A stretch of 59,853 nt of DNA from Escherichia phage KS_A8, in sequence record PP627279.1; one strand, given 5' to 3'. Below the pieces are notes generated by a model. The model ran no database searches. It was not told the origin of the DNA and saw nothing but the letters and a program-made list of their open reading frames with translations. Below, piece by piece: positions 25,343-28,629 of the stretch; within the stretch, counting starts at the first letter, position 1; every line of letters starts with the position of its first letter. The translations under genes were made by a program, and so were the position numbers.

Positions 25343-25698
25343 TATGCTTTCCCTTTACGACATAAGGCTTGAAGTTCCAGAAGCGCATCAATGTCTTCCT
25401 GTGGAGTTACACCAACGTGAATTGGATATTTAGCGCGACATTCGTAGCCAACTTCAACAGTGTGGTTAATGTAGCCGTAAACACATCCACCAATAACAGT
25501 GAAGATAAGCGCAACAATCATTGTGAGGTATTTACCTTGTTTGCGTTCTTCATTTTGTTTGTTAAGCTGACGGTTAAGTTCCACCGCGTCGATTTTACCT
25601 TTGTTGTAATCGTCTACTAAGCTCATTTTGCATCTCCTCTTGTTGTATGCATATATTAAAACAGACCCGCGAAGGGTCTGCAAGTAGAATTTAGGCAT
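25342..25698 (-). CDS. membrane-anchored hypothetical protein
   Basis: 118 aa with one central hydrophobic helix. Confidence 0.25.
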   Translation of the reverse strand: MPKFYLQTLRGSVLIYAYNKRRCKMSLVDDYNKGKIDAVELNRQLNKQNEERKQGKYLTMIVALIFTVIGGCVYGYINHTVEVGYECRAKYPIHVGVTPQEDIDALLELQALCRKGKA

Positions 25699-27676
25699 AT
25701 CCCATGTCTTCGAGATACTTCTCTGCTTTAGCTATATAAGCATCATAATCTATGTCGTCCGGTATTTTATCCGGTAGCGTCATGATTGGGACACCTCCCG
25801 CGCTACCAGCTACACGGTTGCCCGAGTTAGCATAGATTATTTCGGGAGTTTCTTCATTGGTGCTTAAATACCAGCGTACAACCTTACCCAAAAATTCGCC
25901 ATTCCATACCGCGCCGCCTTTCACCGCACGTAGGATAATGAATTTTCTAATATCGTTGCAATTGCGTATAGTACGAGAAACAGGCGTACCGTGGGCCAAA
26001 CATTCACATACAGCTTCCATAATAATTTCACCAGTACAGTTCTTTTGAAGCCCTGTTTTCGCGAACCAGCCTTTACGTTTAATTTCAACATTTCCTTCCT
26101 CATCAGGTTCTTTTACTGCAACATAGTTATTGACGTTAGCACTGTACAGCTTGTCATAGTAGTTGGATTCCATTTCAAAGCCTGTCACAGACTCCCACCA
26201 CTTGATCATGTTATCAACGAAGTCCTGCATGTGGTCAGGATACTTAACCACAATACCATCCGTGTTAGCTGAAATTACTTTAACACCGTTCAGCTCAAAC
26301 GCTTCAATGAGCATTAACAGCGATAGCTGTCCGGTGATAGTTACCTGTATCAATAATTGCGGCGCGTACAATACAGACCACATTGAACCCAATTTACCGA
26401 ACGATCCGTTGATTACGATCTTCAGCGTGTTGGCTGTGTTCTTGTCCCCTGAGTGCTTAGCCGCAATACGACGGTCTACAATGCTTTTATAAACACGAAG
26501 GAACGCTGGTCCCAACTGTTCGGGGTATAAGCCCTGATTAAGAATAATTGAAGGGTAATAGGATGTTACGTCAATGTCCCGCTTCTTAATACCGGGCTCT
26601 TTACCGTGACCAGCACACTCTTCGGAGCTATGCAAACCGCCAATACCCATACGGTAGACACCGTCCGCAATCTTGATTTCAAGACCTGTTAACGCTGGGG
26701 GCAAGCTAACGCCACCGTTATCGCTAACAACAAAACGGCAGTCCCGAACAATATCCAAAACACTATTCATCAGAGGTGTTTGAAAACGAATAAAGTCCGG
26801 TATGTTATATGCATACTTAGTTCCAGGATAAACTTGCGGACGCTGCGGACGCACGCCCGTTAACGCTTGAATTTCGTGTTTAATTACGTCTTCTGCAATC
26901 TGCGCATCAGAACGTGAACGCAGATCCACACCGTATTCTTGCGACATAATTTCACGAAGATGTAAAGGTTCCTGTAATGCAATAAAACATTCTTCCGTCT
27001 GTACAAGGTCGTTAATACAGTACCAGCGTACAATTAACATCTGGTCCTGCGTCAACATTGTATTTGGCTTAAATGGTAAATCCTGCATACGGCGAGTATG
27101 TACACGTCCGCCATATTGTTTCAAACCACCAGATCCAGGCAGAACTTCCATAATATCAATGTGGTTAACGTTCTGCATACGCTTAAGGCGGTAACTCTTC
27201 AACACATCGGAAGGACGCCAATCTTCCACGATTATCTTATCGGTTGCGTCTTTAAGCTGCGCATTAGAACAGCCGTTAAGCGCAAGCGTAGCAATGGGCA
27301 TATCGTACCCGTTACCGTTAAAGCTTACGATAAGGAAGTTTGTCATTACCCAGTTAAGTAACAAGCAATTTAAACTACAACCGTGATACATTTCGAAGTA
27401 GACAACTTTCTTAGTTCGCACTCCGCGAAATGCAATTAAGAAATAGTTTGGATAACATTCAATATCGTATACAAGCGGTTCGCGGTTAATCCATGCTTGA
27501 ATAAGTTCGTCCTGCGTATATAGGTTGTATTGGAAGTTCCGCGCTTCCTCAAGGTTAGGCAGATAATCCGGGCGCTCCCAAGTGCGCTCCGGCGGTAAAC
27601 GTTTAACCTTTTCTTTCTTTGCTTTTGGCTCAGGCGGTAAGTCCTGCCAAAAGAAACCAATAGCATCTGTCCGCAT
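25691..27676 (-). CDS. DNA polymerase, family B-like, with 3'-5' exonuclease domain
   Basis: Exo motifs YDIECYP and FNGNGYD; polymerase motifs DVTSYYPSIIL (motif A-like), KIVINGSFGKLGS (motif B-like), ANTDGIVV (motif C-like). Start set at MRTDAIG (RBS GGAGA; TAATG overlap with clamp stop). Confidence 0.65.
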   Translation of the reverse strand: MRTDAIGFFWQDLPPEPKAKKEKVKRLPPERTWERPDYLPNLEEARNFQYNLYTQDELIQAWINREPLVYDIECYPNYFLIAFRGVRTKKVVYFEMYHGCSLNCLLLNWVMTNFLIVSFNGNGYDMPIATLALNGCSNAQLKDATDKIIVEDWRPSDVLKSYRLKRMQNVNHIDIMEVLPGSGGLKQYGGRVHTRRMQDLPFKPNTMLTQDQMLIVRWYCINDLVQTEECFIALQEPLHLREIMSQEYGVDLRSRSDAQIAEDVIKHEIQALTGVRPQRPQVYPGTKYAYNIPDFIRFQTPLMNSVLDIVRDCRFVVSDNGGVSLPPALTGLEIKIADGVYRMGIGGLHSSEECAGHGKEPGIKKRDIDVTSYYPSIILNQGLYPEQLGPAFLRVYKSIVDRRIAAKHSGDKNTANTLKIVINGSFGKLGSMWSVLYAPQLLIQVTITGQLSLLMLIEAFELNGVKVISANTDGIVVKYPDHMQDFVDNMIKWWESVTGFEMESNYYDKLYSANVNNYVAVKEPDEEGNVEIKRKGWFAKTGLQKNCTGEIIMEAVCECLAHGTPVSRTIRNCNDIRKFIILRAVKGGAVWNGEFLGKVVRWYLSTNEETPEIIYANSGNRVAGSAGGVPIMTLPDKIPDDIDYDAYIAKAEKYLEDMGYA

Positions 27677-28629
27677 TAGACACGTTCTCCAATTAATACA
27701 CCGCGAAGATTTTCCCCAAAGAATGCGCAAGGTTGCGGATACAAACTAAAGTCCGCAGTCTTAACCACATTTTCAAGCAATAGCAGGATATCAATATTGT
27801 ACACTCCCGTAATTGTCCGGTCCTGCAATACGAAGCTTGCACCTTCCGCATCATCATAGTGAGTACGGGCTATACCGTTTTCAATATATACACGAGGTCT
27901 GTCTTCAGCGAATGGTTTGATTTTATGCAAGCCTTCAAAAAGACCTGGATCAACAGGATGTGCATTGCATTGAACATTTAAAATACGACGTATATCGGGC
28001 CACTCGGCATCAATAAGCTGTGTGCGCAACCAGCGACCTTCCGGATAATGAAACGTTACATTGTTCTTGCTAACCTGAATATGTGTCGGGTTAGCCTTAA
28101 TGCGCAATATTTCTTTAATTGCAACAGAAGGTATTATGCAGTCGATAGGAAACTGATTGCCAAACCAGTATTCCGCAATTGTGACGTTATTCGTAGCAAA
28201 CAAACTACCGTTATTAATCAGAATACCGCAAGCCCACGGACGGGAAGCATCCGAGCCTACAAATGGAGCAACTGACTTCACACCTTGAACGAAGCGAGCA
28301 CCATCTATTCCGTATAAATCACCTTCAGGGAATACGTGCGGCGTTTCTTTATCAATACAGCGTATAGCAACACGAAACGGACCTGACTTGATATTCAGCT
28401 TACCGTTAGCCATCATTGTTAACTGCACTGTTTCATCACAGTTTGAAATAGCTTTAATCATAGGCCCAGCTTCGGGCTTGCAATCAATATCCAACTCAAT
28501 AGGGCTACCCAGTGCGATAACACCGTTAAAGCCCTGTACTTGGCCGTCACGAATAAGAAAACTGGTAAGCCCTTCTACCAGTTCCTTTTTAGCGACGGAG
28601 CCTTGAACAAATTTAAGAGCGTCTAACAT
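27676..28629 (-). CDS. DNA polymerase sliding clamp (beta-clamp/DnaN-like, putative)
   Basis: 317 aa; internal DAEWPDIRRIL resembles the E. coli beta-clamp FPDYRRVLP motif (from memory); translationally coupled to the polymerase. Confidence 0.4.
   Translation of the reverse strand: MLDALKFVQGSVAKKELVEGLTSFLIRDGQVQGFNGVIALGSPIELDIDCKPEAGPMIKAISNCDETVQLTMMANGKLNIKSGPFRVAIRCIDKETPHVFPEGDLYGIDGARFVQGVKSVAPFVGSDASRPWACGILINNGSLFATNNVTIAEYWFGNQFPIDCIIPSVAIKEILRIKANPTHIQVSKNNVTFHYPEGRWLRTQLIDAEWPDIRRILNVQCNAHPVDPGLFEGLHKIKPFAEDRPRVYIENGIARTHYDDAEGASFVLQDRTITGVYNIDILLLLENVVKTADFSLYPQPCAFFGENLRGVLIGERV

Follow-up and report, generated by a model that had tools for sequence, protein, structure and literature searches.

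A family B DNA polymerase and a beta-type sliding clamp in Escherichia phage KS_A8: an already annotated Seuratvirus replication pair with a candidate N-terminal docking peptide

In Escherichia coli, the family B enzyme Pol II binds the beta clamp via its C-terminal QLGLF peptide (PMC3716654), and in a survey from 2011 polIII-beta homologues were also listed for Pseudomonas phage 73 and Burkholderia phage BcepGomr, with the NTDG motif being the signature of the "PolIIphages", a polymerase subgroup resembling E. coli Pol II more than the T4-like enzymes (Kazlauskas and Venclovas 2011, PMC3201878). Likewise, Pantoea phage Vid5 possesses a polymerase B gene (ORF29) and then one for a beta subunit (ORF30, HHpred 100% to 3T0P) beside an archaeosine/preQ0 cluster (PMC6266253). 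In T4 and RB69, the family B replicase gp43 is held to the phage clamp gp45 by a terminal polymerase peptide, gp45 being a two-domain PCNA-like trimer with its own loader gp44/62 (PMC4889955), whereas in the herpesvirus pairs UL30/UL42 and UL54/UL44 the viral family B polymerase is accompanied by a processivity factor of clamp fold, and a viral loader is missing. Here, we analyze the corresponding gene pair of Escherichia phage KS_A8, a DnaN-like clamp and a Pol II-like polymerase encoded on the minus strand of a 59,853-nt stretch (sequence record PP627279.1, referred to as the window).

Compared with the E. coli Pol II/beta/DnaX machinery, the KS_A8 pair shares a family B polymerase with 3'-5' exonuclease, a three-domain clamp of the putatively dimeric type and a short terminal hydrophobic peptide as putative tether, and both sequence and fold searches with the phage polymerase place Pol II among the best matches. 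In contrast to Pol II, which is a repair enzyme, both partners are phage-encoded and replicative in KS_A8, the clamp shows only about 15% identity to DnaN and is about 50 residues shorter, motif C reads NTDG, the candidate peptide is N-terminal and Gln-less, and a loader is not encoded. The last point and the bacterial three-domain type of the clamp also distinguish the pair from the T4/RB69 system, while an acidic clamp sets it apart from UL42 and UL44. No difference in kind, however, separates it from the PolIIphages having polIII-beta homologues, as polymerase subgroup and clamp family are the same and BcepGomr even has dpdA, clamp and polymerase in equal order, with a polymerase starting with MRFDSDGLFW. 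KS_A8 is thus the Seuratvirus member of this module. Orthologues of both proteins are present in Vid5, and there is no substantive difference to this phage or to the annotations of Enterobacteria phage 9g and of Seuratvirus members (Queuovirinae), the GenBank records of Seuratvirus being annotated alike.

The window is essentially a whole Seuratvirus genome, collinear from the terminase genes through the primase gene with Escherichia phage SeppeHuegi (Queuovirinae, Seuratvirus). The 3.2-kb stretch comprising the two genes is 93–97% identical to 34 GenBank phages, including KS_W4, CSP1, slur01, Greed and phages of the BASEL collection, and in most of these records one gene already bears the label "DNA polymerase" and the other that of a "DNA polymerase beta subunit" or "processivity factor". 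Hence, the pair is an ordinary replication pair of a Seuratvirus coliphage, annotated in GenBank as well as published, and the finding as stated in a first-pass annotation of the window adds nothing new. What is new here, and was not part of that finding, are the proposals of an N-terminal docking peptide, of the way of clamp loading and of possible further clamp clients; terminal docking peptides were not described in the 2011 work on PolIIphages (PMC3201878). From folds, catalytic motifs, gene order and overlap, an arrangement conserved in several lineages and the lack of a loader, we infer that the two genes probably encode the Seuratvirus replicase, consisting of a proofreading, RNA-primed family B polymerase and a beta-type clamp, where the clamp would form a ring, the polymerase would be tethered by its N-terminus, loading would be performed by the host DnaX complex and synthesis of both proteins would be coupled.

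The identity of both proteins is deduced from the concordance of PHROG, PDB-sequence, NCBIfam and fold searches with the annotation of the near-identical phages. The polymerase matches PHROG 1252 "DNA polymerase" end to end (E = 1e-228), and a phmmer search against PDB sequences retrieved Pol II of E. coli as well as the palm of Sulfolobus solfataricus PolB1, the latter with E = 2e-5. Using 34 homologues, AlphaFold2 yielded a model with a predicted local distance difference test (pLDDT) score of 90, and the top 50 Foldseek matches to it in the PDB are all family B enzymes (archaeal PolB, E. coli Pol II, Pol alpha) with E values down to 8e-16, the global template modeling (TM) scores of 0.35–0.49 being low because domain orientations differ. 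Curated cut-offs are not reached, with no match to PF00136, 14.5 bits for PF10108 (cut-off 24) and 20–37 bits for the NCBIfam Pol I and Pol II models (cut-offs of at least 516); these models do not cover the diverged subgroup, which PHROG 1252 does. All B-family and exonuclease motifs named in the first-pass annotation are indeed present (Table 1). The exonuclease motifs conform to the patterns DxE (Exo I), Nx2-3[FY]D (Exo II) and Yx3D (Exo III), while DVTSYYPS and KIVINGSFGKLG correspond to the family B patterns DxxSLYPS of motif A and KxxxNSxYG of motif B, both aligning with their counterparts in S. solfataricus PolB1 and in Pol II of E. coli. In motif C, with the general family form YGDTDS, the first Asp of the canonical DTD is replaced by Asn. 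The polymerase family is large, comprising more than 7900 clusters at 90% identity, and tblastn retrieves 1026 GenBank phage records; in 438, the match extends over 80% or more of the query length. Some related polymerases (P0191, P0206) show an insertion of 50–70 aa near residue 590.

The 317-aa protein encoded upstream matches PHROG 947 "DNA polymerase processivity factor" (E = 4e-81). Its AlphaFold2 model (38 homologues; pLDDT 93, predicted TM score 0.87) is matched by DnaN crystal structures in the PDB at full length (Foldseek E = 2e-20, TM 0.81–0.84, about 15% identity), with alignments of 357–371 columns on DnaN chains of 365–380 residues. The resemblance to DnaN had been proposed from the segment DAEWPDIRRIL (residues 207–217), which aligns with DGRFPDYRRVL of E. 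coli beta (phmmer E = 0.01), and fold prediction had been named as decisive for it; the clamp domains of the single-chain model speak in favor of the claim. The PHROG and Foldseek matches of both proteins are far beyond chance, and the sequence similarity of the clamp to DnaN, though weak, is genuine. In addition, a profile of the clamp family reaches DnaN structures when searched against the PDB (E = 1e-4). The match to TIGR00663 has an E value of 8e-8 but with 31.7 bits stays below the cut-off of 137.65, and PF02767 is likewise found below its threshold (22.2 versus 27 bits). According to the model, the protein is a three-domain clamp of the beta type and not of the PCNA/gp45 type; it is a remote, strongly diverged homologue and not a DnaN orthologue.

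The clamp would form a head-to-tail dimeric ring around DNA. Its isoelectric point (pI) of 5.59 (family median 5.58; E. coli beta 5.25) is acidic as in ring clamps and thus consistent with a ring. Besides, the peptide-binding cleft seems to be retained. In hhalign alignments with an E. coli beta sequence identical to 1MMI, the cleft residues T172, L177, P242, V247, V360, M362 and R365 correspond to T146, I151, P211, I216, V311, I313 and R316 of the phage clamp, the domain III part being of modest confidence; the local alignment of the clamp family covered only domains I and II, and the global one places the C-terminal family consensus RGAIVGMRx on AYVVMPMRL of beta. The cleft of beta is also the binding site of the delta subunit. 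Clamps of the Septimatrevirus, Loki and Pfeifenkraut lineages (L003 2754..3896, L002 2874..3890, L084 3853..4851 and L087 5929..6948) possess a Lys/Arg-rich N-terminal extension of 20–50 aa which is absent from the KS_A8 clamp.

The pairing of a DnaN-like clamp with a B-family polymerase had been regarded as an unusual combination in the first-pass annotation. This does not hold in view of the GenBank annotations, the Vid5 paper, the 2011 survey, the Pol II–beta precedent and the 362 GenBank phage records in which tblastn detects the clamp family. The corresponding phages have hosts including Pseudomonas, Escherichia, Salmonella, Stenotrophomonas, Vibrio, Xanthomonas, Rhizobium, Sphingomonas and Acinetobacter, and their clamps are labeled "replicative clamp", "DNA polymerase III sliding clamp" or "processivity factor". 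A search with the clamp yielded 80 loci from IMG/VR; in all of those that reach far enough, the clamp gene is immediately followed by that of the polymerase, and the order of clamp and then polymerase is also conserved in the distant phages PAC1 (Septimatrevirus), Pfeifenkraut, Loki, Lucius, Halfdan, PA13076 (Rosemountvirus) and BcepGomr. Clamp and family B polymerase therefore make up a module of phage replication that is common, annotated and published and has a cellular precedent. In the literature searched, no experiments on beta clamps encoded by phages together with family B polymerases were found.

Both genes of KS_A8 were confirmed as open reading frames (ORFs) spanning 25691–28629, and their junction is GGAGAACGTGTCTAATGCGG, with the clamp stop TAA and the polymerase ATG sharing one A. 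The translational coupling proposed from this TAATG in the first-pass annotation is compatible with the overlap, and tight junctions of –11 to +2 nt are found in 46 of 74 related loci, the remainder having gaps of 50–751 nt. Wider spacing of 190–750 nt, perhaps due to inserted small genes, occurs in a minority of loci, namely L011, L016, L017, L028, L053, L055, L068, L070, L079, L081 and others. An alternative polymerase start at the in-frame TTG 27730, 54 nt upstream and resulting in 679 aa, was rejected, as this extension is not conserved and homologues begin at the MR.D motif, in line with a gene of 661 aa.

A candidate for the contact between both proteins was found at the N-terminus of the polymerase, MRTDAIGFFWQDL, where R2, D4, G7, F9, W10 and D12 are invariant in 34 homologues. 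Residues 1–17 are predicted to be disordered (pLDDT 28–42), yet belong to the best-conserved parts of the protein, and such conservation without predicted structure is the expected look of a short docking motif. About 60 distinct sequences from metagenomes likewise show the pattern R-x-D-[ASM]-x-G-[FLM]-F-W-x-[DE] and, behind it, a linker rich in Lys and Pro, and A-I-G-F-F resembles Q-L-G-L-F of Pol II minus the Gln. The search of the polymerase for a clamp-binding peptide, suggested in the first-pass annotation, hence yielded this N-terminal candidate and none at the C-terminus (..YLEDMGYA). Comparing 74 polymerase representatives at 80% identity, 59 with and 15 without a clamp gene nearby, a terminal aromatic peptide is present in 57 of the 59 clamp-linked enzymes (41 with N-terminal G[FLMI][FW]W, 16 with a C-terminal peptide of the ..LFF type) and in none of the 15 others, counts that come from few phage lineages and are thus not phylogenetically independent. 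The two remaining clamp-linked polymerases, from Loki and Halfdan, begin with MTLF.. and MFFDD.., respectively. The median length preceding Exo I amounts to 71 aa with a clamp versus 14 aa without. Clamp-less polymerases (AH2-like, RcMrWorf-like) start few residues before Exo I and show no aromatic terminus; in phage AH2, no clamp homologue was detected in the scanned 98% of the genome. In clamp-linked polymerases of other lineages, the N-terminal motif is replaced by a Lys-rich linker and a C-terminal peptide, for example ..KTAALSFF in PAC1, ..KKQATMFF in Pfeifenkraut, ..PEQVDMFA in Lucius and ..SLFF or ..QLFF in many others.

Based on these patterns, the polymerase probably docks on the clamp via the near-invariant N-terminal R-x-D-A-I-G-F-F-W peptide, with the disordered A-I-G-F-F-W segment being accommodated in the cleft between clamp domains II and III. 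In function, it would then correspond to the QLGLF peptide of E. coli Pol II, which is located at the other terminus, the C-terminal one. [quoted passage not shown] This would be compatible with the missing canonical Gln and with the fact that clamp-less relatives differ in other replisome genes, too. Moreover, in phage T7 the polymerase is contacted by helicase and SSB through terminal tails which are acidic or aromatic. However, where the N-terminal motif is missing, clamp-linked relatives have peptides of clamp-binding type at the C-terminus behind the Lys-rich linker (QATMFF, AALSFF, QVDMFA), which points to one function moved between termini, and neither motif occurs in any clamp-less polymerase. 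A partner other than the clamp is thus considered unlikely.

How the clamp is brought onto DNA had been raised as a question in the first-pass annotation, and legitimately so, since the genome is without a clamp loader. Pfam and/or PHROGs were employed for scanning the replication-region ORFs of at least 130 aa left hypothetical or generically named in SeppeHuegi, together with helicase, exonuclease, ligase, RNase H and primase. Members of clamp-loader families (delta, gamma, RFC, gp44/62-like) were not among the scanned ORFs, and the collinear SeppeHuegi record contains no clamp loader annotation. Instead, the scan revealed a superfamily 2 (SF2) RadD-like helicase, a Cas4 exonuclease, a DUF669 SSB, a Sak4-like AAA_24 protein, an ATP ligase, an RNase H, a PDDEXK nuclease and a primase-polymerase, the only P-loop ATPases being the RadD-like helicase (NCBIfam E = 9e-79) and the Sak4-like protein. 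One of these two ATPases, or orf75, which may be translationally linked to the clamp gene, might serve as loader, or the polymerase might act as chaperone. None of the candidates, however, resembles a known loader in Pfam, PHROGs or NCBIfam, and orf75 belongs to a small PHROG family, while in the distant lineages that were examined the clamp gene is not directly preceded by a gene of this size, making loading by a phage protein very unlikely.

In fact, fewer than half of the viral processivity factors come with loaders, and for loader-less clamp homologues with raised pI direct DNA binding has been proposed, while loader-dependent clamps are acidic (PMC3201878, PMC4889955). In line with the lack of a loader gene, the KS_A8 protein might therefore dispense with loading altogether, either binding DNA directly or forming an open or non-ring assembly like the herpesvirus proteins UL42 and UL44. 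The proposal, however, concerned homologues of raised pI, whereas the pI of the KS_A8 clamp is close to that of E. coli beta; moreover, its model shows the complete three-domain DnaN fold. Direct binding based on an elevated pI was thus judged unlikely, and loader-free operation in general is deemed quite improbable.

An acidic clamp, a seemingly retained cleft and the lack of a phage loader make loading by the host DnaX complex the most economical and the likeliest reading; the gamma/tau complex would place the clamp on primed phage DNA. A possible aid in recruiting this complex is suggested by C-termini of the phage proteins. In all ORFs from 164 loci, acidic ..DDIPF tails are confined to clamps (24), the RadD-like helicase (17) and five short unassigned ORFs, three of which are cut by the locus edge. 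Regarding their distribution, only the clamp bears the tail in 19 cases, only the helicase in 16, both in one and neither in 17. Clamps with ..DDIPF are found in L003, L112, L129–L148 and others, and that of PAC1 ends with ..YEDDIPF. DDDIPF is the C-terminal hexapeptide of SSB, whose C-terminus is in contact with chi, a subunit of the clamp loader (PMC5872125, PMC3045619). Tails of this type may thus mimic SSB and recruit the host chi-psi/DnaX complex, which would answer the question of loading, or a different binder of the SSB C-terminus, or may equally bind another partner; in KS_A8, it is the SSB-tail-like C-terminus of the helicase, ..DDPDYVPF, which may help in this recruitment. If the host complex indeed loads a clamp sharing only 15% identity with DnaN, or if DnaX is recruited by mimicry of the SSB tail, this would show a small phage hijacking the sole part of the replisome which it does not encode, and holC, holD and dnaX would be suggested as host factors limiting these phages, several of which are in the BASEL reference collection. 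In any case, these phages provide a widespread example from nature of a clamp of the bacterial type whose loader is not encoded alongside.

Several points weigh against the proposed replicase with N-terminal tether and host loading. With about 15% identity to E. coli beta, recognition of the clamp by the host delta subunit is uncertain, and the helicase tail DDPDYVPF departs from DDDIPF. The link between peptide and clamp is based on few lineages, with the counts being inflated by phylogenetic non-independence. In addition, the peptide is devoid of the conserved Gln of the clamp-ligand consensus QL[SD]LF, in which Gln and Leu-Phe are the key features (PMC3716654), and its N-terminal position is atypical for polymerases. 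Finally, the assignment of the domain III cleft residues stems from a forced global hhalign alignment of modest probability (80%).

Further ligands of the clamp might be encoded in its vicinity. DpdA, the enzyme inserting preQ0 into DNA in these phages, where up to 27% of the guanines are replaced in phage 9g (PMC6884629), ends with ..TFRDRVMELF in KS_A8 (..RDRVMELF at 28859..28882, minus strand). The comparison of DpdA tails, including those of the distant lineages below, covers the loci L004–L083, L165, L168, L169 and L171–L176. A tail of the type R-[VI]-Q-E-L-F is present on all 74 distinct DpdA sequences from clamp-containing loci; it is exactly terminal in 63 of the 74, and of these all 63 have the Leu and 60 the Phe. 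Among 17 conserved ORF clusters of the neighborhood, DpdA alone bears such a tail (97% of members versus at most 16% in the others). In BcepGomr, where the clamp gene is located two genes downstream, DpdA ends with ..QQGLFV, and in a distant DpdA lineage of the Bacillus phage Flasso type (about 30% identity) with ..KQxRLF, here with a beta-clamp homologue of another kind, about 355 aa long, following directly. The DpdA proteins of Rosebush, phiSM and Sonali do not have this tail, and a clamp gene is absent from the short stretches around them, so that these phages are presumed to be clamp-less. Among Mycobacterium phages, 56 carry DpdA, and this genus is missing from the ten genus names represented best in the clamp search; a scan for relatives of the DpdA of Cellulophaga phage phiSM found none. 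In the literature searched, no paper linking DpdA with a sliding clamp was found.

As Gln and Leu-Phe are the key features of beta-clamp ligands, DpdA may be a second clamp client, by which 7-deazaguanine insertion would be coupled to replication. Tethering to the clamp would explain how a post-replicative base-exchange enzyme reaches a large fraction of the guanines. From the conserved Q-E-L-F terminus of DpdA and a gene position beside the clamp gene in two very distant lineages, one might even suppose that the clamp is mainly a platform for DpdA or, alternatively, a decoy titrating clamp-binding proteins of the host, and not a processivity factor of the polymerase. PAC1, Pfeifenkraut, Loki, Lucius, Halfdan and PA13076, however, are without DpdA and nevertheless keep the clamp-polymerase pair as well as the terminal peptides of the polymerase. 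The link to the polymerase is thus the constant one, and a clamp serving mainly other purposes is highly improbable. An N-terminal E-L-F (MELF) resembling the DpdA tail is found on the primase-polymerase, with three close relatives in the IMG/VR scan, too few for judging conservation. Tentatively, and with considerable doubt, the clamp might be viewed as a hub for several clients, binding the polymerase by its Gln-less N-terminal peptide and DpdA by R-[VI]-Q-E-L-F and being loaded by host DnaX via mimics of the SSB C-terminus, which would reside on the clamp itself in Septimatrevirus-type phages (..DDIPF) and on the RadD-like helicase in KS_A8. In metagenomic phages of the Flasso type (L172, L175), a DnaX-like protein with the N-terminal pattern ..YRP..F..VV[AG]Q is encoded a few genes downstream of the DpdA-clamp pair (at about 13901..14980, plus strand). 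Unlike KS_A8, this lineage appears to bring its own loader subunit.

Table 1. Positions of genes, motifs and other elements of the KS_A8 replication region in the 59,853-nt window.
Feature	Position	Strand	Remarks
Terminator-like hairpin and T-run	25661..25681	–	immediately 3' of polymerase stop; 8-pair stem, 5 G-C pairs, tail TTTTAATATAT
Family B DNA polymerase gene	25691..27676	–	661 aa from ATG; Pol II-like phage subgroup, NTDG motif C
Motif C, SANTDGIVV (residues 469–477)	26246..26272	–	S469 to G474 invariant; NTDG signature
Motif B, KIVINGSFGKLGS (residues 419–431)	26384..26422	–	K419, N423, G424, G427 invariant
Motif A, DIDVTSYYPSIIL (residues 367–379)	26540..26578	–	contains DVTSYYPSIIL; D367, D369, S372, Y374, P375 invariant
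Exo III, YCINDL (residues 219–224)	27005..27022	–	Y219, D223 invariant in 34 homologues
Exo II, SFNGNGYDMPI (residues 118–128)	27293..27325	–	N120, D125 invariant in 34 homologues
Exo I, YDIECYPNY (residues 70–78)	27443..27469	–	D71, E73 invariant in 34 homologues
Lys/Pro-rich linker (polymerase residues 13–40)	27557..27640	–	joins N-terminal peptide to folded core; pLDDT rises from 42 to 86
Candidate clamp-binding peptide, RTDAIGFFWQD (polymerase residues 2–12)	27641..27673	–	conserved and predicted to be disordered
Clamp/polymerase junction	27674..27692	–	GGAG 10 nt upstream of polymerase ATG, then TAATG
Sliding clamp gene	27676..28629	–	317 aa; DnaN-type (polIII beta-like), three clamp domains
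Clamp C-terminal strand, LRGVLIGERV	27679..27708	–	aligned to AYVVMPMRL, the C-terminus of beta closing the peptide-binding cleft; R309, G310, G314 invariant
Clamp AEWPDIRRIL (residues 208–217)	27979..28008	–	aligns with E. coli beta GRFPDYRRVL (cleft P242, R246, V247); W210, P211 invariant
Clamp FATNNVTI (residues 144–151)	28177..28200	–	aligned to VATDGHRL of E. coli beta (T172 to L177 of the cleft wall); A145, T146, N147, N148 invariant
orf75	28629..28856	–	75-aa basic ORF (MANLRRPKGKRKY...); PHROG 38388, function unknown
DpdA (DNA 7-deazaguanine transglycosylase) gene	28856..29776	–	PHROG 887; annotated DpdA in SeppeHuegi
RadD-like helicase	35934..37916	–	C-terminus ..DDPDYVPF, tail at 35937..35960
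Primase-polymerase	46426..48768	–	begins MELFPAEIKAFPQW; N-terminal E-L-F (MELF)

The clamp and polymerase genes are part of a chain of 1- or 4-nt overlaps (25661..30006, minus strand) formed by orf77/dpdA (ATGA), dpdA/orf75 (TGATG), orf75/clamp (TAATG) and clamp/polymerase (TAATG), with orf75 thus being placed between dpdA and the clamp gene. The one-base overlaps along dpdA-orf75-clamp-polymerase would allow a coupled and roughly balanced expression, and the hairpin behind the polymerase stop likely marks the end of the operon. Directly upstream of the clamp-polymerase pair lies the cluster for 7-deazaguanine (preQ0) biosynthesis (29773..34382, minus strand), encoding FolE, QueD, a YhhQ-like transporter, QueC and QueE, which is identically annotated in SeppeHuegi and known for Seuratvirus.

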